The notes beneath the pieces are model-generated. The model did no database searches. It was given only the letters and a program-made list of their open reading frames with translations, and had not been told where the DNA came from. 27,148 bases of DNA from an uncultured Pseudomonadota bacterium. GTDB lineage: Bacteria; BMS3Abin14. A program made the position numbers and the translations under genes. Shown in pieces: positions 2,019 through 21,719 of this stretch. Within the stretch, counting starts at the first letter, position 1, and every line of letters starts with the position of its first letter. The stretch lies in NCBI GenBank assembly GCA_964454175.1, contig CAYVSA010000027.1:1-27148 (forward strand), given 5' to 3'.

Positions 2019-2501
2019 ATGTTCACAAACATTCTTCTACCTACCGATGGATTGAAGGTCTGCGAGGATGCAGTTGGTAGCGGCATCAAGCTGGCCAAGT
2101 CCCTGAAAGCAAAAGTTACCGGGGTTCACGTAACGCCAAAACTCAGCCCGAGGGAGCTGCTCCATGCCTACCACCCCGAGATGCTGTGGAGTAGGGATGA
2201 GGCTGAAAAGGCCCAGGAAGCCATGAACCACCTTGAGGCCCTCAACAAGTCTTCAGCTGACAAGTACCTTTCACTTATTGAGCGCCTGGCAGGGGATGCT
2301 GGAGTGGAAAGCGAGATAGTTTACATTCAGAACGAGTCTCCTTCCACAGGGATCATAAAGGTGGCCAAGGAAAAGGGGTGTGACCTGATCTTCATAGCCT
2401 CTCACAGCAAGGGAGGCCTTGCAGGGGCTATCCTGGGGACGGTTACCACCAAGATCCTTGCAAAGTCCAACATACCCGTATTGGTCCATAGGTGTGACTG
2501 A
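2019..2501 (+). CDS. Universal stress protein (UspA family)
   Basis: N-terminal ILLPTDG, C-terminal CDLIFIASH...ILGTVTTKILAKSNIPVLV. SD AAGGAGG upstream. Confidence 0.92.
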   Translation: MFTNILLPTDGLKVCEDAVGSGIKLAKSLKAKVTGVHVTPKLSPRELLHAYHPEMLWSRDEAEKAQEAMNHLEALNKSSADKYLSLIERLAGDAGVESEIVYIQNESPSTGIIKVAKEKGCDLIFIASHSKGGLAGAILGTVTTKILAKSNIPVLVHRCD

Positions 2502-2535
2502 TTGACGCTGTAATTTAATAGTTGGTGACCTTGAT

Positions 2536-4332
2536 ATGACTGGTGAATGCGTACATCCCGGCCTGAAGAAGTGGGTCGACGAAGTGGCTGGCATGTGCCG
2601 GCCTGAAAAAATATGCTGGTGCGACGGCTCTGTCGAAGAGTACAACAGGCTCATGGGGGAGATGGTCCTGGCCGGTTCAGCCATTCCCCTCGCAGGCAGG
2701 GCCAACAGCTTCCTCTTCAGGTCGGATCCCAGCGATGTGGCGAGGGTCGAAGGCCGCACATACGTCAGCACAAGCCACCAGATCGATGCCGGGCCCAACA
2801 ATAACTGGCTCCCTCCCGGCGACCTGAAAAGGACTATGGGCACCCTTCTGGACGGCTGCATGAGGGGACGAACCATGTACGTCATCCCGTTCTCCATGGG
2901 CCCCATTGGTTCTCCAATGGCTAAAACGGGGATTCAGATCACTGACAGCTCCTACGCTGTGTGCAACATGCGCATTATGACGAGGATGGGCAAGAGCATC
3001 CTTGAGTCACTTGGTACCGATGGTGACTTCATACCCTGCCTGCATTCAGTGGGTGCACCCCTGGAGCCGGGTCAGGAGGATTCCCCCTGGCCCTGCGCTC
3101 CCATGGAGCAGAAGTACATAAGTCATTTCCCCGAGGAGAACCTGGTGTGGTCCTATGGGTCGGGGTACGGGGGCAACGCCCTGCTGGGCAAAAAATGCCT
3201 GAGTCTTCGGCTGGCATCGAACATGGCCAGCCGTGAGGGCTGGCTGGCAGAACACATGCTGCTTCTCAGGCTTATCAGTCCAGAGGGGAGGAAGTACCAC
3301 ATCGCCGGTGCCTTCCCCTCGGCTTGCGGCAAGACGAATCTCTCCATGATCCAGCCAACACTTCCCGGGTGGCGGGCCGAGACCATCGGCGACGACATCG
3401 CCTGGATGAAGATCAACTCTGACGGCAGGCTCCACGCCATCAATCCTGAAACAGGCTTCTTCGGGGTGGCTCCGGGCACTTCAAGCTGGTCGAACCCCGT
3501 TGCCGTGGATACCATGAAGGAAAATGCGATCTTCACCAACTGTGCTTTAACAGACTCAGGAGATGTCTGGTGGGAGGAAATGGACGGCCAGGCACCATCA
3601 CACGCCATAGACTGGAAGGGGCAGGACTGGACGCCGGGCTGCGGTCGGCCAGCTGCACACCCCAACGCCAGGTTCACAGCTCCGGCCAGTCAGTGCCCCC
3701 ATATAAGCCCAGACTGGGAAGACCCCGAGGGCGTTCCAGTGGACATCATAATATTTGGCGGCCGCAGGGCTGATACTATTCCCCTGGTCACCGAGGCCTT
3801 CGATTGGGATCACGGTGTTTTCATGGGTGCATCGGCCTCTTCTGAAACTACGGCAGCAATAATCGACAAGGTTGGGAAGGTTCGGAGGGACCCCTTCGCC
3901 ATGAAGCCGTTTTGCGGTTACAATATGGGCGACTATTTCAGTCACTGGCTGGAGATGGGAGACCGACTTGGTGACAGGGCACCGAAGATCTTTTACGTGA
4001 ACTGGTTCCGCAAGGGGCAAGACGGACGATGGCTCTGGCCTGGCTTTGGTGAGAACAGCCGTGTTCTGAAGTGGATGTGCGACAGAGTCGACAGCAGGGT
4101 AGGGGCCAGGGAGACCCCCATTGGCAACATGCCGGAAGAGGGGGGTCTGGACCTGGAAGGACTTTTCCTACCAGAGGGCGACATGCGCGAGCTGATGAAG
4201 GTGGATGTTGGGAACTGGAAAAAAGAACTTCCTGATCTTGAATCCTACTTCAGTCAGTTTAAAGGTCGTCTCCCGGAGCGTCTCTTTGGGCAGCTGGAGG
4301 GTCTTAAGGGGAGGCTGGAAAACCGAAAATAA
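2536..4332 (+). CDS. pckG: Phosphoenolpyruvate carboxykinase (GTP)
   Basis: [96 protein letters not shown]. Confidence 0.97.
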
Positions 4333-4394: not shown

Positions 4395-4430
4395 AAAAAG
4401 AACCCGCCCGCAAAAGGCGGGTATTTTTTT
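4395..4430. terminator. Intrinsic terminator after pckG (possibly bidirectional)
   Basis: AAAAAGAACCCGCC-cgcaaaa-GGCGGGTATTTTTTT. Confidence 0.85.
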
Positions 4431-4619: not shown

Positions 4620-4648
4620 TTGACATGACCGTGGACCGCAATTATAGT
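4620..4648 (+). promoter_or_regulatory. Sigma70-type promoter of the CDC48-FadR-OOR cluster
   Basis: TTGACA (4620-4625), 17-bp spacer, TATAGT (4643-4648). Confidence 0.85.
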
Positions 4649-4780
4649 GGTCCGACCATCAGGCCACCGTGATTAAAACCTGTAAAACTGAATATAACGG
4701 CATAAACGCGGTGGACAGGTTTTTGGAGTTCATTGGTCTGACCATCATACCAGGTGATCCAACATTGATGGTCAGACCAA
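4648..4780. promoter_or_regulatory. Three FadR/PdhR-type operators TGGTCnGACCA
   Basis: TGGTCCGACCA 4648-4658 (over -10/+1), TGGTCTGACCA 4734-4744, TGGTCAGACCA 4769-4779. They match the FadR-subfamily TGGT-N3-ACCA palindrome, and a FadR-family gene lies in the cluster. Confidence 0.85.
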
Positions 4781-4807: not shown

Positions 4808-6979
4808 GTGAAAGTCAGACAGAAACCGGAGAAAATAGAGGAAGTGTCGTTGCGAGTTGCCAAAGCCTTTATAGAGGATGAGGGAAAAGGGCTGGCTCGC
4901 CTTGACACGATCCACCTGGAGGGCCTCCGGGCTGTGCCGGGTGACGCCCTCGTGATCTCCGGCCGCGGCTCAACGGTTGCCAGGGCGGCCGAAACCACAA
5001 CCGAGTATACCGGTCAGAACCTCGTGCAGATAGACGGTATCATCAGGGACAACGCCCAGGTTTCGGTTGACGAGTGGTGCACGATCCAGAAAGTAAAAGT
5101 CAAGGCGGCCGAGAGCGTCCTTCTCTCGCCCCTGGAAGGTTCAAGCCTGATCCCCAAGGACGAGGAGATGCAGCATGTCCAGCAGCTCCTTTCGGGACTC
5201 CACGTTGTCATCGGCGACAAGATCCAGATCATCCTGTACGGAACAAGGCCCCAGTTCTTCTTTGTTGACGGAGCCAGTCCAAGGGGTGTTGTTCGAATAA
5301 CTCCCGATACTACTATTCACTTCAAGGCCACGGATGTCGCCCACGAGAAAACCTTGAGGGTCTCTTACGAGGACATCGGCGGCCTTGAAAAGGAGCTGTC
5401 CCTCGTAAGAGAGATGATCGAACTGCCGCTGAAATTTCCTGGCTTGTTCACCACCCTGGGAATAGACCCCCCCCAGGGTGTTTTACTGTCCGGACCACCG
5501 GGAACGGGCAAGACCCTCCTTGCCAGGACGATCTCCAACGAGGTGAGGGCGCATTTTATTCACGTCAACGGCCCCGAAGTGATCCACAAGTTCTACGGTG
5601 AGAGCGAGGCTAAACTGAGAGAAGTTTTCGAAGAGGCTCGCAGAAATGCTCCCAGTATTATCTTCCTTGACGAGATCGATGCTCTGGCCCCACGTCGAGC
5701 CCAGGTTATTGGAGACGTTGAAAAGCGGGTAGTGGCCCAACTGCTGGCCCTCATGGATGGACTGGTCTCCAGGGGTGAAGTTGTCATTATCGGGGCAACG
5801 AACTTGCCGGAGCTTGTTGACCCGGCTCTGCGCCGCCCGGGAAGGTTCGATCGAGAGATAACCATCGGCGTACCCAACAGACCGGGCCGCCTTCAGATAC
5901 TGAAGATCCACTCCAGCAGGATGCCGCTGGCAGAGGACGTGGACCTGGACCACCTGGCCGGGATAACCCATGGCTATGTCGGGGCTGATATCGCCGCCCT
6001 GTGCAAGGAAGCCGGGATGGTCACCCTTCGCCGATTGATGCCGGAGATCAGGTTCGAAGTTGATGACAGGCCGCAGCTTCCCGAGGGCGCTGCCGTAAAA
6101 GTCACAGGTGAAGATTTTCTGGAAGCCTTCAAGAGTGTGGAGCCAACTGCCACGAGGGAGTTCATGACCGAAAGACCCAGGCTCAGATTCAGCGATGTTG
6201 GAGGTCTTGAGGAGATCAAACAGAACCTGAAATCCATAGTGGAACTCCCCATGCGCGGTATATCCACTTTTACCAACTCGAGATTGGGGCCGCCTAAAGG
6301 GGTTCTCTTTACTGGCAGGTCCGGAACCGGAAAGACTCTCATGGCCAGGTCTCTTGCAGGAGAGATGGGCATAGCTCTGATAGTTGTTGATCCTCCCACC
6401 CTTTTGTCCAAATGGGTTGGAGAGTCAGAAAAAGGGTTGAGGGAGGTTTTTAAACGGGCCAAGCAGGCGTCACCCTGCATTCTTTTCCTGGACGAGATAG
6501 AGGCTATCGCGTCTGCCCGTTCTGCCGAGTATTCAAGCGATGTCTCCCAGAGGGTCGTGAGCCAGCTCTTCAGGGAACTTGACGAACTACACGGCTCCCT
6601 CGGGGTGATCGTCGTGGCAGCCACAAACCGTATTGACCTTGTTGAACCTGCCCTGCTGAGAGCAGGCCGTTTTGATTATATTATCGAATTTCCTCTTCCA
6701 GGTGAGAAGGAGAGGGAGGAGATCTTTTCCACATATATGCAGTCGATTCCTTTCGAAGCCGACGTGGATCTGCACCTTCTTGCTGAAAGGAGCGAGGGGT
6801 GGACGGGGGCCGATATAGAGGCTCTTTGCAAGAGGGCGCTCATGCTGGCACTTGAGGAATTCATGGATAACGGGGGAGAGTCGGATCTCTCATTGTGTGT
6901 GATCACATCCAGGCATTTTGATGGGGCGTCATCGCAGCATTCATTCGCTGCCGTTGATCCCTCACCGGTAAAGCACTGA
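4808..6979 (+). CDS. CDC48/p97/VAT-family double-ring AAA+ ATPase
   Basis: CDC48-type N domain (LRVAKA..DEGKGLARLD). D1: YEDIGGL, GPPGTGKT, KFYGESE, FLDEID, ALRRPGRFDR. D2: FSDVGGL, GRSGTGKT, KWVGESE, FLDEIE, ALLRAGRFD. The GTG start is uncertain. Confidence 0.93.
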   Translation: MKVRQKPEKIEEVSLRVAKAFIEDEGKGLARLDTIHLEGLRAVPGDALVISGRGSTVARAAETTTEYTGQNLVQIDGIIRDNAQVSVDEWCTIQKVKVKAAESVLLSPLEGSSLIPKDEEMQHVQQLLSGLHVVIGDKIQIILYGTRPQFFFVDGASPRGVVRITPDTTIHFKATDVAHEKTLRVSYEDIGGLEKELSLVREMIELPLKFPGLFTTLGIDPPQGVLLSGPPGTGKTLLARTISNEVRAHFIHVNGPEVIHKFYGESEAKLREVFEEARRNAPSIIFLDEIDALAPRRAQVIGDVEKRVVAQLLALMDGLVSRGEVVIIGATNLPELVDPALRRPGRFDREITIGVPNRPGRLQILKIHSSRMPLAEDVDLDHLAGITHGYVGADIAALCKEAGMVTLRRLMPEIRFEVDDRPQLPEGAAVKVTGEDFLEAFKSVEPTATREFMTERPRLRFSDVGGLEEIKQNLKSIVELPMRGISTFTNSRLGPPKGVLFTGRSGTGKTLMARSLAGEMGIALIVVDPPTLLSKWVGESEKGLREVFKRAKQASPCILFLDEIEAIASARSAEYSSDVSQRVVSQLFRELDELHGSLGVIVVAATNRIDLVEPALLRAGRFDYIIEFPLPGEKEREEIFSTYMQSIPFEADVDLHLLAERSEGWTGADIEALCKRALMLALEEFMDNGGESDLSLCVITSRHFDGASSQHSFAAVDPSPVKH

Positions 6980-7014: not shown

Positions 7015-7749
7015 ATGTTCAAGCCGGTAAAGAAGACAAGGGTATACGAAGAGATCGTCCAGAAGGTCAAGGGGATGGTCGAACAAGGGATGCTCATATC
7101 GGGAGACCAGCTTCCCTCGGAAAGAGAGCTTTCAGAGGTTTTTAAGGTCAGCAGATCTTCCGTCAGAGAGGCACTCAGGGCCCTGGAGAGCCAGGGTTTT
7201 CTCGAGAGTCGGCAGGGAGACGGCACCTACATTGCGAGCCGCCCGGTGGAAGACCTCGTCGACCCCCTTGCTGAAATTATCTTTACCGAAAAGGACGGCC
7301 AGATGGAGCTCTTTGAAATGCGGCGGCTTATTGAGCCTCAGCTTGCCTGCCTCGCAGCTGAGCGAGCCACTCCGCAGGATATTGCCGAGATGGAGGAGAT
7401 CCTGAAGACGCAGCAGGATCTGGTGAGCGCAGGGGAGCCCGGTACTGATATCGACAAGCTGTTTCACGACAAGCTTTCAGCTGCGACGAAAAACACGATA
7501 CTCATTCGAATAATGGACACAGTAATGGACTCCCTCACTGAAAGTCGTGAGAAGTCACTACAAACAGAAGGAAGGCCCTGGAAATCCCTTTCACGCCACA
7601 GGGAGATCCTGGATGCCATCAAAACGGGGGATAAAGAGCGCGCGGCAAATATAATGCGCGAGCACCTCGAAGACATTGAGGCTGGTCTGTTTACAGTGGA
7701 AGAAAGGAGGAACCTCGAGACCAAGACCAGAAAGGGGGGCGATAGCTAG
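7015..7749 (+). CDS. GntR-family regulator, FadR subfamily (PdhR/LldR/GlcC-like)
   Basis: wHTH GDQLPSERELSEVFKVSRSSVREALRAL. FCD domain with RRLIE, DKLFH, N and HREI residues. Confidence 0.95.
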   Translation: MFKPVKKTRVYEEIVQKVKGMVEQGMLISGDQLPSERELSEVFKVSRSSVREALRALESQGFLESRQGDGTYIASRPVEDLVDPLAEIIFTEKDGQMELFEMRRLIEPQLACLAAERATPQDIAEMEEILKTQQDLVSAGEPGTDIDKLFHDKLSAATKNTILIRIMDTVMDSLTESREKSLQTEGRPWKSLSRHREILDAIKTGDKERAANIMREHLEDIEAGLFTVEERRNLETKTRKGGDS

Positions 7750-7803: not shown

Positions 7804-8418
7804 ATGGCCGAAGTCTATGAGATTACAATCTGGGCCCGCGGGGTTATCCAGGATATGGAGGGACGTCATCTGTCGCTCCTCATGGCGAACTCAGCGGACA
7901 AGGACGGCAAGTTTGTCCAGGCGTGGGACAATTACGCCGATCTGCCGGACAGAGTTGGAGTTCCTCTTCGAAAGTATGCCCGCATCAGCGACGAAGAGAT
8001 AGAGATGCGCTACGACTACGAAAACCTGAACCCCAACATGTCCGTAGTTATGGATGACACCATTGTGAAGGGCATTGATATCCTGTACGGCATGCCCAAG
8101 GGCGGAGTTCTTGTTGTCAACACGAAGAGAACTCCCGATGAGATCCTAAAGTTCATACCTAACAAGGATATTCTTTCGGCCCTGGTCTGTGTGGACGCCG
8201 AAGGCATTTCAGGTGCCATGTCCATGGAGGATGTCGACTTTATGGGATCCGAAGGTGGTGTGGAAACTGCCGAAGTCGGAAAGGGTCTATCCGCGCCGTT
8301 AGTTGGTGCTGCGGCCAAGGCTGTCGACCTGCTGACCCTGGACAGCCTGGTGGCTGTTGCCGCCAACAAGGAAGGCGTCAAGGCTGGTTACGAGCAGGCT
8401 ATGGTGAAAGCCCTTTAG
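7804..8418 (+). CDS. Oxalate oxidoreductase-like 2-oxoacid:ferredoxin oxidoreductase, gamma subunit (domain III)
   Basis: ITIWARGV, QAWDNYADLPDRVGVPLRKYARIS, VLVVNTKR and GSEGG closely resemble the N-terminal part of the Moorella OOR delta chain as recalled. SD AAGGAGG. Confidence 0.85.
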   Translation: MAEVYEITIWARGVIQDMEGRHLSLLMANSADKDGKFVQAWDNYADLPDRVGVPLRKYARISDEEIEMRYDYENLNPNMSVVMDDTIVKGIDILYGMPKGGVLVVNTKRTPDEILKFIPNKDILSALVCVDAEGISGAMSMEDVDFMGSEGGVETAEVGKGLSAPLVGAAAKAVDLLTLDSLVAVAANKEGVKAGYEQAMVKAL

Positions 8419-8435
8419 ACAAGAAGGAGATGATC

Positions 8436-8786
8436 ATGAGCAAAAAGAAGTATTGTGAAAAGTTCAATGTTCCGGAGAACCTCCAGGTTCCGATGGGCGC
8501 CTGCATCAAGGCCCCTGTCAAGGAACAGAGGATGATGATAACCGGAAACTGGAGAACTGTGCGTCCCGTTATCGACCACGAGAAATGCACGCTTTGCCTG
8601 AACTGCTTCATCTACTGTCCCGACGGCAGCTGGCACCTTGACGAGAAGGAAGAGCGAATGGTCTGGAACGCAGATTTCTGCAAGGGCTGCCGTATTTGCA
8701 TTAATGAATGCACAGTTGACGCTCTTTCAGGTGTTGACGAACTGGAGTTCAAGGGCGGCGTTGTCCGGCTGGATGTCCCATTTTAA
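8436..8786 (+). CDS. oorD: Oxidoreductase delta subunit, 2x[4Fe-4S] ferredoxin domain
   Basis: TGNWRTVRPVID, CTLCLNCFIYCP, CKGCRICINEC. SD AAGGAG (8424-8429) favours ATG 8436 over 8430. Confidence 0.88.
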   Translation: MSKKKYCEKFNVPENLQVPMGACIKAPVKEQRMMITGNWRTVRPVIDHEKCTLCLNCFIYCPDGSWHLDEKEERMVWNADFCKGCRICINECTVDALSGVDELEFKGGVVRLDVPF

Positions 8787-8804: not shown

Positions 8805-9998
8805 ATGGCGAAAGAAATGTTTTTGGCCGGCTGTTCCGCTGCAGCGTATGGAGCGAAGCTGGCACGAGTGGAAGTTATATGTTCATACCCCATCCGTCCT
8901 TACACAGGCATCATGATGGAGCTCTCCAAGCTGGTCGCTAACGGGGAACTTGATGCTGAGTTCGTTCATGGCGAGGGAGAGCATGCACAGGTTTCAGTGA
9001 CCTACGCTGCCTCCGCCGCTGGTGCAAGGGCTTTCACAGGCAGCTCCGGTGTAGGCGTGGCCTATGCCATGGAGTGCTACTCCCCGGCCGCAGGCGGACG
9101 CCTGCCCTGTCAGATGTCCATCGCTGACCGTGCACTCGATCCTCCGGGAGACTTTGGGTCGGAGCACACTGACGCTATGAGCATCCGTGACCAGGGATGG
9201 ATCATGGGCTGGGCCGAGACGCCCCAGGAAGTCCTGGACAACACCATCCTGTACTACAGGATAGGTGAGGACCACAGGGTTCTGCTGCCCCAGTTCTGCT
9301 GCCAGGACGGATACTTTGTATCCCACATCCCTGACAAGGTTATCATGCCAGAACAGTCCCAGGTGGATGAGTTCCTCCCACCCTACACGCATCCCCATCC
9401 CCTGGATCCAACAAGGCCCATCTCACATGGTCCGCAGATCTTCCCCGACCAGGGCCCTGCGATCGACCTTCAGAGAGCACAGGCAATGGTGGATACACCA
9501 CCGGTTATCGCTGAGATAGTCGGCGAGTTCAACGAAGTGTTTGGGCGCGACTACAGCCCCTTCCTGGACGAGTATAGAACTGACGACGCTGATTTTGTCT
9601 TCTTCATCCAGGGTGGACATGCAAGGACAGCCCGCTACGCAGTGAACCACCTGCGCGACAGGGGCATCAAGGCCGGTTTGGTCAAGCTGCGGTTTGTGAG
9701 GCCATTTCCAACAGAAGCCGTTGCTGAGACCCTCTCCAAGTTCAAGGCTGTCGGTACTATCGAGACCAGCACATCTTACGGTGGAGCCATGAAGGGTGGA
9801 AACCTCATCCATGAGGTTCGCTCTTCCCTTTACGACGTTCCAAATCCACCAGTAGTTACCTCTTTCATGGCCGGTCTGGGTGGAGAGGTTGTCTCCCTTG
9901 AGGAGTTCTACAGCATGGCAAAGGTCCTCTCCGAAGCCGCAAAGAAGGGTTCGGCTGACCAGTATGTCTACTGGCTGAACTTCGACAATGGAGTGTAA
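8805..9998 (+). CDS. oorA: Oxalate oxidoreductase-like alpha subunit
   Basis: SYPIRPYT (Arg31, where PFOR has YPITP), GEGEH (Glu59), DRALDPPGDFG (Arg109, Asp116) and GPQ (Gln211). Numbering is identical to the Moorella OOR alpha chain as recalled. Confidence 0.88.
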   Translation: MAKEMFLAGCSAAAYGAKLARVEVICSYPIRPYTGIMMELSKLVANGELDAEFVHGEGEHAQVSVTYAASAAGARAFTGSSGVGVAYAMECYSPAAGGRLPCQMSIADRALDPPGDFGSEHTDAMSIRDQGWIMGWAETPQEVLDNTILYYRIGEDHRVLLPQFCCQDGYFVSHIPDKVIMPEQSQVDEFLPPYTHPHPLDPTRPISHGPQIFPDQGPAIDLQRAQAMVDTPPVIAEIVGEFNEVFGRDYSPFLDEYRTDDADFVFFIQGGHARTARYAVNHLRDRGIKAGLVKLRFVRPFPTEAVAETLSKFKAVGTIETSTSYGGAMKGGNLIHEVRSSLYDVPNPPVVTSFMAGLGGEVVSLEEFYSMAKVLSEAAKKGSADQYVYWLNFDNGV

Positions 9999-11045
<1,047 letters not shown>

Positions 11046-11307: not shown

Positions 11308-12285
11308 ATGAGAACAATGAGATCACATTTTTCCATTTTGCTTGTGACGATACTTGTCGTAGCAAGCGTGTTTCTCTTCGGAGAAATTGCCGAGGCATGG
11401 CCCCAGAGGCCTATTGAGTTCGTCATCTCTGCAGGCGTCGGAGGTGGTGCTGACAAGTATGCCCGGTTCCTTACAGGGATCAACGTAAAGCAGAAGTACG
11501 TCGACGAGGCGATTCTTCCCGTAAACAAGCCCGGCGGCGCAGGCGCAGTGGCCATGAACTACGTCCTCTCCCAGAGGGGAAACGGCCACATGATGCTGAT
11601 CACCCTGAACAGCTTCCTCACCACACCGCTGTTCCAGAACCTTCCGTTTACATTCCGCAATTTCACACCAATTGCTCTTCTGGCCCTGGACAACTTCCCG
11701 CTGTGGGTACATAAAGACGCCAAGTGGAAGACCATCCAGGAGTTCATTGCCGATGCCAAGACCCGGAACATCCTCGTTGGTGGAACGGGTTCAAAGCAGG
11801 AAGACGAGATCGTCTGGAGAGCGATTGAGAAGATCGCTGGTACAAAGAAGTTCAAGTACGTGCCGTTCAAGGGCGGCGGTGCTGTTGCCAAGGCCCTCGT
11901 GGGTAAGCACATTGAGGCTTCCGTGAACCAGGTCAGTGAGGCCGGGGGCTTTTTCCCCGAGTTCGTAAGGCCGCTGGTAGTCTTCCAGGACGATCACCTG
12001 GACGTTGCGGGCCTCGAAAATGTCCCCACAGGCAAGGAGAGCGGTATCGACTTCAGCTACAACATGATGAGAGCAATATTCGCTCCCCCCGGTATCTCCA
12101 AGGACGCCAAGAAGGGGCTGGTCGGTCTCTTTAAGGATATTTCCAAGGATGCCGAGTGGCTGAAGTTCGCCTCGGACAAGGGTCTTAAGGCTACCTTCAT
12201 GACAGGCGACAAGCTCATGAAGTTCGCTGAGGACTTCGAGGCAGTTCACAAGGACATCATGAAGAAGCAGGGTTGGATCAAATAA
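11308..12285 (+). CDS. tctC: Tripartite tricarboxylate transporter substrate-binding protein
   Basis: Signal peptide ending AEA/WPQRPIEF, GGGADKYAR, VNKPGGAG, YVPFKGGG, RAIFAPPG (Bug/TctC motifs). Confidence 0.93.
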   Translation: MRTMRSHFSILLVTILVVASVFLFGEIAEAWPQRPIEFVISAGVGGGADKYARFLTGINVKQKYVDEAILPVNKPGGAGAVAMNYVLSQRGNGHMMLITLNSFLTTPLFQNLPFTFRNFTPIALLALDNFPLWVHKDAKWKTIQEFIADAKTRNILVGGTGSKQEDEIVWRAIEKIAGTKKFKYVPFKGGGAVAKALVGKHIEASVNQVSEAGGFFPEFVRPLVVFQDDHLDVAGLENVPTGKESGIDFSYNMMRAIFAPPGISKDAKKGLVGLFKDISKDAEWLKFASDKGLKATFMTGDKLMKFAEDFEAVHKDIMKKQGWIK

Positions 12286-12324
12286 CTTCAGAGGAGTGAA
12301 CAGCACCTCAGAAACGTGATTCGT

Positions 12325-12357
12325 GGTTGTGAGGGCCGATGATCGGCCCTCACAACC
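12325..12357. other. Perfect 16-bp inverted repeat between tctC and tctB
   Basis: GGTTGTGAGGGCCGAT-g-ATCGGCCCTCACAACC. Confidence 0.75.
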
Positions 12358-12383
12358 TGATAGATCACCCTGGGAGGTCTAAA

Positions 12384-12854
12384 TTGAAAAAAGGTGAGTT
12401 AATTACAGCGGTAGTTTCCATAGTCATATCGCTTATAGCCATTATCGAAGCAGTTCGACTTGGTTTCGGATGGGAAACTGACGGGCCTCAGGCTGGCTTT
12501 GCCCTCTTCTGGCTGGCTATGATGATGTTTGTATGCTCGGCCGGGCTCCTTGCCCTGGCTGTGAGATCAAAGGATGAAGAGGAGTTCTTTGTGAGCAGGG
12601 AAGGAAAGATGGAGGCCATTCGAATAGCCTTCACTTCCGTGCTGGTGACAATCGGGATCATTTTCATGGGAGTCTACATCTCCACGTTGGTCTACTGCGC
12701 CCTGTTTTCCCGCTGGCTTGGAAAACATAGATGGCCAGCAGTAATAGCGTTTTCCATCATCACTACTCTTGCCATTTTCTTCGGGATGGAGAAGGGGCTG
12801 AAGATCCCCCTGCCCAAGAGTATGTTCTACAATAAAGGATTGTTTTGGTTTTAG
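12384..12854 (+). CDS. tctB: TTT small permease subunit
   Basis: 4-5 hydrophobic segments, GWETDGPQAG, C-terminal LKIPLPK. TTG start at 12384 follows SD GGGAGG; the ORF-track start 12339 lies inside the hairpin. Confidence 0.88.
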   Translation: MKKGELITAVVSIVISLIAIIEAVRLGFGWETDGPQAGFALFWLAMMMFVCSAGLLALAVRSKDEEEFFVSREGKMEAIRIAFTSVLVTIGIIFMGVYISTLVYCALFSRWLGKHRWPAVIAFSIITTLAIFFGMEKGLKIPLPKSMFYNKGLFWF

Positions 12855-13088
12855 CGGGAGTTACGAGTCCAACCCTGCCGCCCTCAGGGCGCTGCGGGAC
12901 TGTTGCCAGAACGATTCAACGGTATCAGATCTTTTGATAAAAAGAGCCTCCGGCTCGCTCTTTAGGAATTCAAAGTGTTAAATAATTCGGGTTTTTGGCC
13001 CCGACTTGACCGTTGATAACTTCAACAGCGAAGGCTTGTAAAATGGATTTTCACGGCTTTAGTAAAGACATCGTATCGGGAGGTATTA

Positions 13089-14612
13089 ATGGAAACTCTA
13101 GCTAACCTGATGGTCGGTTTCGGGGTTGCGATGCAGCCTATGTCAGTGATTATGATGACCCTGGGGCTGTTTCTGGGACTTGCGATAGGTGTTCTCCCAG
13201 GACTCGGCGGTACCGCCGGCGTTGCCCTGCTGCTGCCCCTGACCGTTCTAGTTCCCAAGGAAGTTGCCATCATCTTTCTTGCTGCCATCTACTGGGGAGC
13301 TCTTTATGGAGGGGTTATTACTTCAATACTTTTTGCTATCCCCGGCGAACCATGGTCAGTTGCACTTATTTTTGATGGTTATCCCATGGCGAAAAAAGGT
13401 CAGGCTGGTCTTGCCCTGTCTGTGGCATTCCTGTCCTCCTTTGTCGGCATCATGGTCGCTGCGGTATTCTTTGTGGCCTTTGCAATGCCACTTGCTCTTT
13501 TCGCCCTGAGATTCGGTCCTCCGGAAATGTTTGCCATCATGATGCTCGCTTTCAGCACATTTGTTGGCCTGGGCACCGGTGGTGCATTAAAGACCCTGGT
13601 CAGCACATCCTTCGGGCTCATCCTCACTATGGCAGGCCTGGACGTAGTTACCGGTCAACCCAGGTTGACCTTCGGAACATTTGCCTTTATGTCCGGATAT
13701 CACTTTGTTCCGGTAACCATCGGCCTTTTCGGGATCGGCGAGATCATGATCGATGGTGAGGAACGGTTCAGCACCCAGATCAAGGAAGTCATTCAGGCCA
13801 AGGTGGGAATGCAGGACATCTGGCAGGGTATGAGGGAGATCAAGAAACATTTACCCCTGACCCTTTTCAGCGCATTTATGGGTTTTTTCGTGGGCATCCT
13901 GCCAGGAACTGGGGCCACACCGGCTTCCTTCCTTGGCTACGGTATTGCCAAACAGTACTCCAAACATCCTGAAAAATACGGAGAGGGTTGTATCGAAGGT
14001 ATTCTGGCGCCGCAGGCCGCGGCGAACTCCGCCGGAACAGGCGCCCTTCTTCCCATGATCTCCCTGGGAATTCCCGGTTCCCCCACGGCGGCCGTTCTTC
14101 TGGCCGGTTTATACATGTGGGGGCTCTGGCCTGGACCGAGGCTGTTTCTTGAAGAGCCGGTTTTTGTATGGGGCCTGATCGCCAGCCTGTTTTTAGCTGG
14201 TTTCGTGTGCCTTATCATCTGTCTTTTCGGGACGCCACTTCTTGCGTCCATCATGAAGGTACCGTGGGGGCTTCTCACGCCCATCATCGTCATTGCATGT
14301 TTCGTGGGAAGTTACGTTATGCGAAACCTGATGTTCGACGTCTGGTGCACTCTGATTTTCGGCCTGGTTGGATACTTCATGAAGAAGTTAAAATACCCTC
14401 TGGCCCCACTTGCAGTGGCCCTTGTACTTGGTGAAATGACGGAGAGGTTCCTCAGACAGGCACTGATCATCGGTGACGGTTCATTTTCCATATTCTTCAC
14501 GAGGCCTTTGTCGGCAATTTTCATGGTTATCGCCATTTTGCTTTTCGCTCTGCCGGCGTTCAAGCTGATAAAGGACAAGATGAAGGATAGTGGAGCCGAA
14601 GCCCAGGCGTGA
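13089..14612 (+). CDS. tctA: TTT large permease subunit
   Basis: GVLPGLGG, YGGVITSILFAIPGE, DGYPMA, GILPGTGAT, LGIPGSPTAAVLL, LWPGP, FFTRPLS. Confidence 0.95.
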   Translation: METLANLMVGFGVAMQPMSVIMMTLGLFLGLAIGVLPGLGGTAGVALLLPLTVLVPKEVAIIFLAAIYWGALYGGVITSILFAIPGEPWSVALIFDGYPMAKKGQAGLALSVAFLSSFVGIMVAAVFFVAFAMPLALFALRFGPPEMFAIMMLAFSTFVGLGTGGALKTLVSTSFGLILTMAGLDVVTGQPRLTFGTFAFMSGYHFVPVTIGLFGIGEIMIDGEERFSTQIKEVIQAKVGMQDIWQGMREIKKHLPLTLFSAFMGFFVGILPGTGATPASFLGYGIAKQYSKHPEKYGEGCIEGILAPQAAANSAGTGALLPMISLGIPGSPTAAVLLAGLYMWGLWPGPRLFLEEPVFVWGLIASLFLAGFVCLIICLFGTPLLASIMKVPWGLLTPIIVIACFVGSYVMRNLMFDVWCTLIFGLVGYFMKKLKYPLAPLAVALVLGEMTERFLRQALIIGDGSFSIFFTRPLSAIFMVIAILLFALPAFKLIKDKMKDSGAEAQA

Positions 14613-15053: not shown

Positions 15054-16397
15054 ATGGAACCAACTCAGATAGTCACAGCTGTAATTTTCGCTATCACCAT
15101 ACTTTTTATCATCATCAGGAAAATTGACAGCGTCGTTGCAGCTCTCCTGGGAGTGGCAGCGATGGTTGTCGCGGGAAGCATGACCGAGGTCCAGGCTTTC
15201 ACATTTGTGGACTGGGATGTCATCATGATCCTGATAAGCGTGTGGCTCATTGCCGGTTATTTTGGAAAGACGGGGATCCCGGAGTACATGGCGGACAGGA
15301 CCCTTCGCTTCTCGAAAGGCAATATTGCTCTATTCGTTACACTGATCGGGTTCCTTGCAGGGATCATCTCCATGTTCATCGACAACGTGGTAGTCGTCCT
15401 TATGCTGGCACCCATTATTTTTCATATCCGTAAGCTCTATGGTTTCTCCGCAACAGGTCCGATCCTTTTTATCGGGCTGTGTTCCAACTTCATGGGAACC
15501 GCCCTTCTGCTGGGTGATCTGCCTCCCCAGATGCTCCACAGCGTTTCGGGCATCGAGTTCGCCGGGTTCATATGGCACTCTGGACGGCCATCATCACTGC
15601 TCATACTGACTGCAACGTATATAGTCGTCTGCCTGTTCTTCTATTTCAAGTTCCTCAAATCGCCCCTTTCGGCATGTGTGCTCGATGAGGCGGCGGCCCA
15701 TGAAGCGGCCCAGCAGACTCAGGGCCACATAAAAGACAAACGGGTCGCCATCATCGCAGTGGGAGGGTTCCTGCTAACTATTCTGGGCATGTCCTTCAGA
15801 CAGGTGATCGGCATGAAACTGGGTTTCATCGCCTTTGCCGGTGCCCTTCTGCTGGTCCTGGCCTTTGAGATCCTCAGGGAACCGCTGGGCCTCGAAATAC
15901 CCGACCTTGAACACATGCTTCAGGAAATTGAGTGGTCAGCCATCGGTTTTTACGTGGCTCTTTTCGCCCTGGTGGGAGGACTGGAGCACACCCACATCCT
16001 CGAGATAGTCGCTAACTGGCTCATACCTTTTATTAAACATGGACTGTTGACCGGTACGTCGGTCCTTTACTGGGTTACAGCTCCGATAGTTGGGATCGTG
16101 GAACATGATGCATACATCCTGACGATCCTGTATGTTATCCGGGACCTGGGTCACTCGCAGGCTCTGAACACGTGGCCCTATTACTGGGCGCTTGTCTGGG
16201 CAGGTACACTGGGAAGCAACCTGACCATAGCGGGTGCGCCCGCTCTGTACGTTGCCCTGTCCATGGGTGAGAAGGAAGACGGCGAAAAATTCTCCCTGAA
16301 GGAGTTCTTCTCCTACACGGTGCCTTATGTCATAATTTCACTGGTTGTGTGTTACGCACTCCTTGTTCTTGTATGGGTGTTGCCCTTCACAAGGTAG
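15054..16397 (+). CDS. Ion-transporter superfamily (ArsB/NhaD/SLC13-like) anion permease
   Basis: About 11-12 TM helices; VDWDVI, SMFIDNV, SNFMGTALLLGDLPP, GTLGSNLTIAGAPA (IT-family repeat motifs). Confidence 0.85.
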   Translation: MEPTQIVTAVIFAITILFIIIRKIDSVVAALLGVAAMVVAGSMTEVQAFTFVDWDVIMILISVWLIAGYFGKTGIPEYMADRTLRFSKGNIALFVTLIGFLAGIISMFIDNVVVVLMLAPIIFHIRKLYGFSATGPILFIGLCSNFMGTALLLGDLPPQMLHSVSGIEFAGFIWHSGRPSSLLILTATYIVVCLFFYFKFLKSPLSACVLDEAAAHEAAQQTQGHIKDKRVAIIAVGGFLLTILGMSFRQVIGMKLGFIAFAGALLLVLAFEILREPLGLEIPDLEHMLQEIEWSAIGFYVALFALVGGLEHTHILEIVANWLIPFIKHGLLTGTSVLYWVTAPIVGIVEHDAYILTILYVIRDLGHSQALNTWPYYWALVWAGTLGSNLTIAGAPALYVALSMGEKEDGEKFSLKEFFSYTVPYVIISLVVCYALLVLVWVLPFTR

Positions 16398-16501
16398 CTG
16401 CAGCCCGGGTGTGATCTGCCCCGGGTTTGACCAGGGTCGTGTCCGGCACCAGTCATTGCGGGTCGCAAAGTAAGTACTGCTCCCGGACACGACCCCTACT
16501 G

Positions 16502-16534
16502 AAAACAATGGGCTTTGGCCCATTGTTTTTTTTT
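16502..16534 (+). terminator. Intrinsic terminator after the anion permease
   Basis: AAAACAATGGGC-tttg-GCCCATTGTTTT followed by further T residues. Confidence 0.85.
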
Positions 16535-16638: not shown

Positions 16639-18429
16639 ATGGTATCAGAAAAAAACAAGGACATAATGGGCAGGCTTCTGGGTCACGGTTCGGTCGAATT
16701 TACCAGCAGGCCGGTGATCATGGGCACTAATGGAATGGCTACCAGTGGTCATTACCTTGCGAGCAGGATAGGTCTTAACATCCTTGAGCAGGGAGGCAAC
16801 GCGATCGATGCCGGGGTGGCGATGGGTTTTGCTCTGTCGGTTCTGGAACCTTTTATTTATGGAATTGGCGGTGAGGTTCCGATCCTTATCTACCTTGCAG
16901 CAGAAGGCAGGGTAGTGGCCCTTTCGGGACAGGGTCACGCTCCGGAACGGGCGACGATCAAATGGTTTACGGATAACGGCTACGATGCTGTGCCGGGGGA
17001 CGGACTTCCCGCAACAGCAGTCCCTGACGCTGTTTCCACCTGGATAACCGCGCTTTCCCGATTCGGGAGTATGTCCCTGGCCCAGGTCCTCGGACCATCC
17101 ATTGAACTGGCCTCAACCGGTTTCCCCATGTACGAACTGATGAAGATCGCCCTGGAAAGCTACGCCGGGTGGTTCAGAGAGTCGTGGCCCACATCCGCCG
17201 CCGCATACCTGCCGGAGGGCAGGACCCCCGAAGTAGGTGAGCTTTACATTCAGGAGGATCTGGCTGATTTTTTCGGCAGACTGACTGCCGCCGAGGCGAA
17301 GGCTGTCGGCAGAGGCAGGATCGGAGCCCTCGAGGCAGCACGCTCTGAGTTCTACAGCGGTGAGATAGCTGAACAGATCTTGAGGTTCTCTCAAAACAAC
17401 AGTTTGCCTGACAGCGCAGGAAGGCGACATAAAGGACTACTGAGGGAACAAGATCTGGGCGGTTATATTTCACGAATAGAGGATCCGGTTACCGTCAATT
17501 ACAGGGGACTGGACGTTTATAAGTGCGGACCATGGACACAGGGCCCTGTTTTCCTGCAGCAGCTCAGTATCCTGGAAGGTTACGACCTGGCTTCAATGGA
17601 GCACAACTCCCCGGAATATATTCACCTGGTAACGGAGTGTGCCAAACTGGCCTTCGCCGACAGGGAGCAGTATTATGGAGACCCTGATTTCGTTGATGTG
17701 CCGCTGGACATGCTGCTCTCAAAAGAGTATGCGGAAAAACGCAGGGAGTTGATCGATCCCGAAAGAGCATCAATGGAGCTTCGTCCTGGAGATACAGCAT
17801 CATTCAGGCCCCAACACAAGGAAACTGATCCCAGGGTATTTAGGGGCGACACCACCCACCTTGATGCAGTCGATCGATGGGGCAATATGATAGCAGCTAC
17901 ACCGAGTGGAGGATGGTTTGCCAGTTCCCCTGTAATTGAGGGCCTGGGATTTCCTCTGGGTTCAAGGATGCAGATGTTTTACCTTGATCCGAAACACGCC
18001 AACTCACTCGAACCAGGTAAACGGCCGCGCACGACTCTCACCCCGTCACTGGTGCTCCGTGACGGCAGACCATTTATGGTTTTTGGTACGCCGGGAGGCG
18101 ACCAGCAGGACCAGTGGACACTCCAGTTTTTCCTGAACTGTGTAGATTTCAATATGAACATGCAGGCTGCTGTGGATGCTCCAACATTCCACTCCAGCCA
18201 CTTCCCGGCTTCATTTTACCCACACAGTGCCAGCCCAGGCCGACTTACTGTAGAGGGAAGATTACCCGAAGCAACTATTTCAGCGTTGAGAAAAAAGGGT
18301 CACGATATCGAGGTTGCCGGTGATTGGAGCAATGGCAGGGTGCTCGGGATAAAGTACGATTCAGGGAGTGGTGTCATGAGCGGAGTGGCAACGGCACGGA
18401 TGGAGACGGGTTATGCAATGGGGTGGTAG
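16639..18429 (+). CDS. ggt: Gamma-glutamyltransferase-family Ntn hydrolase (substrate unknown)
   Basis: GGNAIDAGVA, VLEPFIYGIGGE, KLAFADREQYYGDP, autoprocessing site GD|TTHLDAVDRWGN, PGKRPRTTLTP, FGTPGGDQQ. Confidence 0.9.
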   Translation: MVSEKNKDIMGRLLGHGSVEFTSRPVIMGTNGMATSGHYLASRIGLNILEQGGNAIDAGVAMGFALSVLEPFIYGIGGEVPILIYLAAEGRVVALSGQGHAPERATIKWFTDNGYDAVPGDGLPATAVPDAVSTWITALSRFGSMSLAQVLGPSIELASTGFPMYELMKIALESYAGWFRESWPTSAAAYLPEGRTPEVGELYIQEDLADFFGRLTAAEAKAVGRGRIGALEAARSEFYSGEIAEQILRFSQNNSLPDSAGRRHKGLLREQDLGGYISRIEDPVTVNYRGLDVYKCGPWTQGPVFLQQLSILEGYDLASMEHNSPEYIHLVTECAKLAFADREQYYGDPDFVDVPLDMLLSKEYAEKRRELIDPERASMELRPGDTASFRPQHKETDPRVFRGDTTHLDAVDRWGNMIAATPSGGWFASSPVIEGLGFPLGSRMQMFYLDPKHANSLEPGKRPRTTLTPSLVLRDGRPFMVFGTPGGDQQDQWTLQFFLNCVDFNMNMQAAVDAPTFHSSHFPASFYPHSASPGRLTVEGRLPEATISALRKKGHDIEVAGDWSNGRVLGIKYDSGSGVMSGVATARMETGYAMGW

Positions 18430-18546
18430 TGGACGACCAGTAAACTGAATAATGGTTCCGGCAATAACCCCTTTGCTCTGCAAGAGCCTTTGAGCGTCGC
18501 TTCAGGGGTTTTGCCGGAACCTTAAAGTTCAGTTCCTGGTCGTCCA
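18430..18546. repeat. 117-nt long imperfect inverted repeat (MITE-like or structured RNA)
   Basis: Nested arms TGGACGACCAG/CTGGTCGTCCA, AACTGAA/TTCAGTT, GGTTCCGGCAA/TTGCCGGAACC, AACCCCT/AGGGGTT. Confidence 0.75.
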
Positions 18547-18577
18547 GGAGTTTGGGTGTTGGTGATTTACGGTGATC

Positions 18578-18661
18578 CTGGATTTTGGATCTGAGACGTT
18601 GGACCTTGGACCTTGGGCGTTGGACGTTGGGCCTGGGGCGTTGGCCCCTGGACGTTGGACA
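18578..18661. repeat. Degenerate heptamer tandem repeat (about 12 x TTGGACS)
   Basis: ctggatt ttggatc tgagacg ttggacc ttggacc ttgggcg ttggacg ttgggcc tggggcg ttggccc ctggacg ttggaca. Confidence 0.85.
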
Positions 18662-18714
18662 AAAAAACGCCCCTTCCAGTTGGAAGAGGCGTTTTTTGTT
18701 GGAAGGGGCGTTTT
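18661..18714. terminator. Bidirectional terminator between ggt and ppdK, with a duplicated arm
   Basis: AAAAAAACGCCCCTTCCA-gt-TGGAAGAGGCGTTTTTT, then a second arm copy GTTGGAAGGGGCGTTTT (18698-18714). Confidence 0.8.
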
Positions 18715-21381: not shown

Positions 21382-21719
21382 TCTCATCCTCCCTGATCCA
21401 AGTGTTGAGTAGTCTGGAACGTCAAATTCGGCCTGTAATTCACGATTTACCCAAAATCGACACTCCGCGGTCAGAGGTGAAAACCTCTGCCAGCCTCCCC
21501 ATGATCCTGAACACAAACCGAGTTCCAGGACCTTGATCTGTACGGTATTCTTGAAGCTCCCCTCCTGCCCCCAGCAGGATTCCAAATGAGGTCGTACTCT
21601 AGCATTTATCGTCAGATAAAGCTAATGAAATCAGTGGTTTCATGGGGAAAAATGAGTATGAAGCACTGATTTTTTCGGACTGGTAAACTGCAGAAAGTCA
21701 CGTCGGCCTGAACACAGGC

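Follow-up and report, generated by a model that had tools for sequence, protein, structure and literature searches.

Why would a bacterium place the gene for a Cdc48-type unfoldase at the head of the genes for a single metabolic enzyme? The question is raised by a 27,148-nt stretch of DNA, contig CAYVSA010000027.1 of assembly GCA_964454175.1 (the window, by which we mean the whole stretch). The gene under study, at 4808-6979, encodes a Cdc48/VAT-type AAA+ ATPase and is followed by a gene for a GntR regulator and by four genes for oxalate oxidoreductase (OOR), an enzyme that uses thiamine diphosphate (TPP) and iron-sulfur clusters. The first-pass annotation of the window had suggested an activase or maturase dedicated to OOR. 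Of these two ideas the dedication has held up: as judged by co-location and by trees, it is well supported that the Cdc48 clade to which this gene belongs is dedicated to the OOR system. The activase or maturase part lies outside the reach of that result and is taken up further below as a proposal.

Linkage of one Cdc48 clade to OOR

The phylum of the window genome is small, with 16 species genomes in one family, and the public records of the relatives are labelled Candidatus Deferrimicrobiaceae. The ATPase gene is present in 14 of the 16 genomes, and the order Cdc48, GntR, OOR is found in all 12 relatives' loci that are long enough; the locus of a thirteenth relative, on a 2.5-kb contig, ends after GntR. 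Because these 16 genomes are kin, we sampled more widely. A locus search with the whole protein was swamped by generic AAA motifs, returning 79 loci with only 2 close relatives among them. An alignment search with the N domain only, made without any reference to OOR, gave 80 loci, which were pooled with the whole-protein and the phylum loci.

The first-pass annotation had proposed co-occurrence of this CDC48 clade with OOR as the thing to examine, and held that close homologues mostly unlinked to oor genes would speak against its idea. What we found is the opposite of the latter. Cdc48-based searches alone yielded 144 distinct Cdc48 genes, 73 inside the clade defined below and 71 outside it (3 of the 71 had coverage too poor for inclusion in the tree). 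OOR is present in the locus of 68 of the 73 clade genes. The OOR gamma gene lies downstream on the same strand at less than 300 bp in 46 of them and at 300-1200 bp, mostly with a GntR gene between, in 21; in one, OOR is 5.6 kb off on the other strand. The remaining five are uninformative, with the contig ending less than 1 kb downstream, and no clade gene has its flank present without OOR. Of the 71 genes outside the clade, none (0/71) has OOR next to it; one of them, from an archaeon, lies near a distant 2-oxoacid:ferredoxin oxidoreductase (OFOR; 39% identity).

The reverse test started from 90 distinct loci found via OOR alpha. The ATPase is present in 69, 12 have too little flank and 9 are without it despite at least 6 kb upstream, which makes 69 of the 78 informative loci. 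By record label, the ATPase-positive loci belong to Acidobacteriota, Methylomirabilota, Myxococcota, Deferrimicrobiota, Thermodesulfobacteriota, Pseudomonadota and Bacillota.

In a Bacillota-type phylum, where OOR alpha scores above the NCBI cut-off in 30 of 401 sampled genomes, the ATPase gene is directly upstream of OOR in all 26 informative loci of the 28 examined; the other two of the 30 (L240 and L241) have the same arrangement. In the genomes that score highest on the OOR-alpha model (820-844 bits), presumably Moorella-like, the genes run GntR, Cdc48, gamma/delta, alpha, beta. This fits the first-pass annotation, which had placed, subject to verification, genes for a GntR protein and an AAA ATPase next to oor in Moorella. 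Genome-wide, a Cdc48-like gene was found in 38 genomes of this sample, including 29 of the 30 with OOR. Nine genomes have a Cdc48-like gene and no OOR: in seven the gene is non-clade, in one, a 1.2-Mb assembly, a clade gene stands at the end of its contig, and in one the clade gene is broken. This broken copy (L340:3600-5441) has a frame shift near residue 360, breaks off near residue 509 and is followed by a GGT-family gene fragment; either gene decay or an error of assembly may lie behind it. No intact clade member away from oor in a complete genome was seen among the loci and genomes examined.

The linkage outlasts changes in the genes around it. The regulator is of LysR type in Betaproteobacteria, and there is no adjacent GntR gene in Anaeromyxobacteraceae; in one Bacillota locus an MFS transporter takes the place of Tct. 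Note that the betaproteobacterial loci (L215:12190-17203 and L224) have a layout of their own, with Cdc48 about 5.5 kb downstream of OOR and a divergent LysR-type regulator; between OOR and Cdc48 lie a second, distant OFOR and a frame of 1044 residues with GltD-like domains at its end.

The trees agree with the gene neighbourhoods. All OOR-adjacent Cdc48 genes fall on one branch, both in a FastTree phylogeny of 188 distinct sequences (119 rows on the branch, support 100) and in a second, IQ-TREE phylogeny of 78 rows with the Bacillota-type genes added (45 rows, SH-aLRT 100). All 118 placed database clusters (118/118; P0001, P0002 and P0088 were dropped) also lie inside this OOR-linked clade, which numbers more than 119 distinct sequences and, going by record labels, spans seven to eight phyla. 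Its sister group consists of other bacterial Cdc48 proteins, and both are nested among archaeal Cdc48, in trees built without an outgroup from other AAA families. Moreover, the same major groups appear in the Cdc48 tree and in the OOR-alpha tree, in line with the co-phylogeny that the first-pass annotation had wished to see examined.

The ATPase, the enzyme and their operon

Both N-terminal families of the Cdc48 type score above their Pfam cut-offs in the ATPase, CDC48_N with 51.9 bits (cut-off 35.1) and CDC48_2, the beta-clam part of the N-terminal domain, with 24.7 bits (cut-off 22.4). They are joined by two AAA stretches (285 bits) and two AAA_lid_3 stretches (109 bits). The best-scoring NCBIfam family by far is TIGR01243 (CDC48), with 799.6 bits, 3 under its cut-off of 802.65, and the closest solved structures are Cdc48 (8dar_A, 692 bits) and VAT (5g4f_A, 607 bits). 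D1 carries Walker A GPPGTGKT at residue 229, the pore loop KFYG at 261, Walker B DEID at 288 and RPGRFD at 343; the counterparts in D2 are GRSGTGKT at 503, KWVG at 535, DEIE at 562 and RAGRFD at 618. The protein ends in ...DPSPVKH, without an HbYX motif. In reading a full N-D1-D2 protein whose Walker A and B motifs are intact and which has arginine fingers and aromatic pore loops (KFYG, KWVG), an end ...SPVKH that lacks the HbYX docking motif, and a gene directly under putative FadR operators, the first-pass annotation was right: the Pfam matches and motif positions, the C-termini of the clade (below) and three exact palindromes upstream of the gene all agree with it. From family membership only, we would expect a hexameric double ring that threads its substrate at the expense of ATP. 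Which start codon is used is uncertain: with 709 aa, the publicly annotated version of the same protein (P0002) fits an in-frame TTG at 4850. This TTG is preceded, at a distance of 7 nt, by a Shine-Dalgarno sequence of GAGGA type, the better ribosome-binding site, and conservation among the relatives starts at L15-R16-V17.

Across the clade, the Walker A, Walker B, K[FY]YG pore loop, sensor-1 Asn and arginines of D1 are invariant (119 of 119 rows), and the Trp of the D2 pore loop is kept in all 119 rows as well. The position of the D2 Walker B Glu varies, with Thr in 57, Glu in 56 and Asp in 5 of the 119; the window has E563 (6494-6496). D1 looks like the constant motor of the clade, and the Thr-bearing ATPases may hydrolyse ATP in D1 only. 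HbYX-like C-termini are absent from the clade (0/119), and no 20S proteasome was found in the 98.5%-complete genome of the window, whose sole PF00227 match is HslV, beside HslU. Since there is neither an HbYX tail nor a 20S proteasome, docking of the ATPase on a proteasome is unlikely.

The features of the operon are collected in Table 1. The products of the OOR gamma and delta genes match successive parts of one NCBI model, the OOR 'delta' model, which is fused and has 316 positions and a cut-off of 230. In OOR alpha, comparison with 5c4i_A shows that R31, R109, D112, D116 and F117 are retained; these residues, which we take to be those of the oxalate site and the switch loop, are invariant in a 21-row alignment too. 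As judged by these matches, the four-gene OFOR is OOR. It resembles the OOR of Moorella thermoacetica (PDB 5c4i, 5exd, 5exe) in its alpha subunit (E 7e-158) and in the company it keeps, the order GntR, Cdc48, OOR being that of the best-scoring Bacillota-type genomes. It differs from the Moorella-type enzyme in that gamma and delta, fused there, are split into two genes in the window. The clusters differ as well: the regulator gene comes before the ATPase gene in the best-scoring Bacillota-type genomes and after it in the window, where the transporter is TctCBA.

Table 1. Predicted features of the Cdc48-OOR operon and its borders, in window coordinates
Feature	Position	Strand	Basis
Terminator-like hairpin, end of upstream PEPCK unit	4402..4422	+	7-8 pairs, 6 G-C, then T run
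Sigma-70-type promoter TTGACA-17-TATAGT	4620..4648	+	11/12 consensus positions
Putative operator 1, palindrome TGGTCCGACCA, touching the -10 hexamer	4648..4658	.	Pattern match
Putative operator 2, TGGTCTGACCA	4734..4744	.	Pattern match
Putative operator 3, TGGTCAGACCA	4769..4779	.	Pattern match
Cdc48/VAT-type AAA+ ATPase, N-D1-D2, 723 aa	4808..6979	+	Open reading frame, Pfam, NCBIfam, motifs, structure-chain matches
N domain: double-psi barrel CDC48_N (residues 15-97) and CDC48_2 (residues 119-173)	4850..5326	+	Pfam
D1 AAA module with lid, residues 225-417	5480..6058	+	Pfam, motifs
D2 AAA core, residues 503-622, intact (DEIE, KWVG)	6314..6673	+	Motifs
GntR/FCD (FadR-subfamily) regulator	7015..7749	+	Pfam GntR 71 bits, FCD 110 bits
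OOR gamma (domain III)	7804..8418	+	Positions 13-206 of NCBI fused OOR 'delta' model, 215 bits
OOR delta, 2x[4Fe-4S] ferredoxin domain	8430..8786	+	Positions 226-315 of the same fused model, 88 bits
OOR alpha	8805..9998	+	NF045791 597 bits (cut-off 500); 529 bits, E 7e-158 to Moorella 5c4i_A
OOR beta, TPP-binding	10065..11045	+	NF045792 583 bits, 7 under cut-off 590; Pfam TPP_enzyme_C
TctC, TctB, TctA tripartite carboxylate transporter, likely substrate importer	11308..14612	+	Pfam; order kept in relatives
Terminator-like hairpin 3' of CitMHS-family gene	16501..16530	+	13 pairs, then T run

The genes listed in the window from open reading frames and Pfam are all on the plus strand, in the order ThiC, a universal stress protein (Usp), GTP-dependent phosphoenolpyruvate carboxykinase (PEPCK), the Cdc48-like gene, GntR/FCD, OOR gamma, delta, alpha and beta, TctC, TctB and TctA, CitMHS and a GGT-family gene. 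From the Cdc48-like gene through OOR beta the intergenic gaps are 11-66 bases, and the first strong plus-strand terminator-like site beyond the cluster is the hairpin 3' of the CitMHS-family gene. The natural reading would be a single transcription unit with the ATPase gene at its head. The palindrome TGGTCNGACCA (TGGTCnGACCA) occurs exactly three times, at 4648, 4734 and 4769, 5' of the Cdc48-like gene. Allowing up to one mismatch, the window has 4 such sites against 1.09 expected, a number reached by 1 of 100 shuffles. In 1.9 Mb of clade loci, 42 of the relatives' 66 TGGTnnnACCA sites fall within 200 bp upstream of the Cdc48 start. These palindromes are putative operators of the FadR-subfamily GntR regulator, at the operon promoter. 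Among listed sequencing runs with matching sequence words, one DNA run contains a 0.10 share of them, and none is an RNA run.

Several further observations concern the enzyme and its surroundings. The C-terminal tail of OOR delta, ELDFxDGVVRLEKPF, is conserved in most lineages and is absent from the Moorella-type and Acidobacteriota forms. In Acidobacteriota (L246:8120-9952; L244; L125, split by frame breaks) the OOR delta ferredoxin domain forms the C-terminus of a protein of 610 residues that also carries Fer4_20 and Pyr_redox_2 domains (GltD-like), and the OOR of this phylum probably passes electrons to NAD(P). After TctCBA, the window has a CitMHS/ArsB-type transporter gene (15054-16397) that recurs in several relatives at 66-81% identity. 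A TPP riboswitch (RF00059, 73.9 bits) lies at 409-503, 5' of ThiC. ThiC itself is found in 10 of the 119 Cdc48-OOR loci, including the window and several Acidobacteriota, and also near the cluster in one Bacillota-type locus (L328); its nearness may reflect thiamine supply for the TPP enzyme OOR, or chance. The genes that flank the cluster, Usp and PEPCK (2019-4332) on one side and GGT-family and PPDK (16639-21585) on the other, stay near in Deferrimicrobiota-type loci in variable order, and GGT-family genes are near OOR in some Bacillota-type loci too. The GGT-family protein of the window scores 342 bits against the TIGR00066 cut-off of 358. We considered its gene (16639-18429) as a possible oxamate amidohydrolase feeding OOR and found no support for this, with 82 bits to 5hft, a chain that we take to be HpxW, versus 491 bits to 6j3a.

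Proposed function of the ATPase

We consider it quite possible, if still short of probable, that the ATPase remodels or reactivates OOR using ATP. In such a mechanism a GntR/FadR-type repressed promoter would drive the ATPase, the regulator, the four OOR subunits and the carboxylate transporter together, so that the ATPase would be made only when OOR is. OOR, which reportedly undergoes suicide inactivation by pyruvate, would become stuck, either through a dead-end TPP adduct or through damaged iron-sulfur clusters. The ATPase would then pull on an OOR subunit with ATP and partly unfold or dismantle the stuck enzyme, after which the OOR complex would reload its cofactor and work again. The ATPase would in this way serve OOR as a reactivase, much as Rubisco activase or the B12-enzyme reactivases serve their enzymes. 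OOR as the client and reactivation as the outcome are both things that we infer. Reactivation is ranked first because a self-trapping enzyme together with a dispensable, co-regulated threading ATPase recalls the pairing of Rubisco and its activases, and that of the B12 enzymes and their reactivases. With slightly more reserve, we extend the proposal to the whole bacterial Cdc48 branch, which could be a dedicated, ATP-driven OOR reactivase that works by threading and expels a suicide TPP adduct or a damaged iron-sulfur domain.

Several results weigh against this proposal. OOR loci without the ATPase exist (9 of the 78 informative), and 9 of 10 OOR genomes without a linked ATPase have no Cdc48-like gene at E <= 1e-60, in genomes whose completeness is not given; the tenth has a non-clade copy only. 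The states with and without the ATPase are scattered on the OOR-alpha tree, where well-supported branches force at least four independent changes. As judged by gene content, the ATPase is dispensable for OOR in some lineages, and since OOR occurs without it in at least nine genomes, it would be accessory and not a core subunit. The GntR gene is nearly as constant a companion, lying within 0.5 kb in 109 of the 119 clade rows versus 111 of the 119 for OOR gamma. The motor is not uniform across the clade either, with the change of the D2 Walker B Glu to Thr in 57 of 119. No recognition element was found: the C-terminal tails of all four OOR subunits look alike whether or not a lineage has the ATPase. 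Any contact between the ATPase and OOR is hypothetical, and OOR purified from Moorella is active without added ATPase. The divergence of the N domain showed no clear co-variation with the OOR delta tail, the ratio of N to D1D2 identity dropping with overall divergence, and no stand-alone N-domain-like gene was found by tblastn (E <= 10) in OOR loci that lack Cdc48. A complex prediction for the N domain with OOR alpha, gamma and delta (21-row alignments, beta omitted) gave a score of 0.00, which counts neither way.

The evidence for linkage would serve equally well for an assembly or maturation chaperone that holds or remodels new OOR subunits for the insertion of TPP and three [4Fe-4S] clusters and for the formation of (alpha-beta-gamma-delta)2. 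That the ATPase gene is the first of the operon in the lineage of the window, and that ThiC is present in 10 of the 119 clade loci, would suit this role too. We nevertheless regard it as unlikely. The presence of OOR in at least nine genomes without the ATPase makes an obligatory maturase less likely, for which the lack of any Cdc48-like gene in 9 of the 10 genomes checked and the at least four independent changes would be unusual; moreover, no partner of this kind accompanies the other OFOR families at these loci. Rather less likely again is regulated turnover, in which OOR, or damaged OOR, would be fed to a separate peptidase once oxalate is gone or the enzyme is oxidised. Cdc48/VAT and Cpa work with proteolytic cores (Ziemski 2018, PMC6017811), the threading pore loops are conserved in both rings, and the genome has HslV and other AAA proteases. 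Set against this are the missing 20S proteasome and HbYX-type tails (0/119) and the lack of a peptidase gene conserved at the locus across phyla, and a degrader co-induced with its target from one promoter would be odd.

The constancy of the GntR gene, which in 109 of the 119 clade rows lies no more than 0.5 kb from the ATPase gene, and the three putative operators directly upstream in the window could also point to the GntR/FCD repressor as the client, for example to be stripped from its operators or unfolded. We hold this to be improbable, for the ATPase and OOR remain together where the regulator is of LysR type (Betaproteobacteria, L215) or where none is adjacent (Anaeromyxobacteraceae), GntR-OOR modules without the ATPase exist (L246, L256, L264, L271 and L272), and FCD-domain regulators normally respond to small ligands. 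Least credible of all, and in our view very improbable, is that a general-purpose unfoldase merely moves with the oor cluster by shared horizontal transfer, with no specific functional tie. Ziemski 2018 (PMC6017811) describes non-actinobacterial bacterial Cdc48 as sporadic and horizontally acquired from archaea, and the clade is indeed nested among archaeal and other bacterial Cdc48. Hitch-hiking would have to account for adjacency in 68 of 68 informative forward loci, kept across seven to eight phyla by label despite changed gene order, regulator and transporter; the lone genome with a clade gene and no OOR found carries a broken copy.

Known relatives and significance

Archaeal VAT (Thermoplasma, PDB 5g4f) and eukaryotic Cdc48/p97 (8dar) share the N-D1-D2 architecture with the window ATPase, which falls within the Cdc48 radiation in the trees, and VAT has aromatic pore loops in both rings, like the window ATPase. 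In contrast to these proteins, the window ATPase belongs to a bacterial clade of its own, without an HbYX tail and without a 20S proteasome in the genome. VAT and Cdc48 are general-purpose machines, whereas the window ATPase is encoded in the operon of one enzyme and co-inherited with that enzyme.

The enzyme reactivases offer a likeness of another kind. Rubisco activases (Rca, CbbX, CbbQO) and B12-enzyme reactivases (DdrAB, GdrAB, EutA) are ATPases encoded beside one enzyme that free it from a dead-end state, are dispensable in some lineages and are co-regulated with it; we propose a likeness to them in how the window ATPase works. They differ in family, being single-ring AAA+, MoxR or Hsp70-like ATPases, and we know of no Cdc48-family member that acts as an enzyme activase or reactivase. 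No literature linking Cdc48 or an AAA ATPase with OOR was found, in a search that left subscription journals mostly outside. The ATPase is probably an undescribed helper of OOR.

Among bacterial relatives, Cpa of actinobacteria, as described in Ziemski 2018 (eLife, PMC6017811), is likewise a Cdc48 homologue without the classical HbYX motif. By that description it forms a separate actinobacterial cluster. The other bacterial Cdc48 proteins are placed by the same paper inside the archaeal cluster as sporadic and probably horizontally acquired, and those outside Actinobacteria are treated there as archaeal imports without an assigned role (Ziemski 2018, PMC6017811).

One large Cdc48 clade has a single constant genomic partner, and what was an orphan ATPase now offers a hypothesis open to direct testing. 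If the ATPase repairs or matures OOR, the concept of the activase or reactivase would extend to the thiamine/iron-sulfur oxidoreductases. Such a role could account for practical difficulties with these enzymes, and would be relevant to the engineering of oxalate degradation or of CO2-reducing OFOR chemistry. If the proposal for the whole branch is true, the Cdc48 family would gain its first activase, and bacterial Cdc48 outside Actinobacteria its first defined job.

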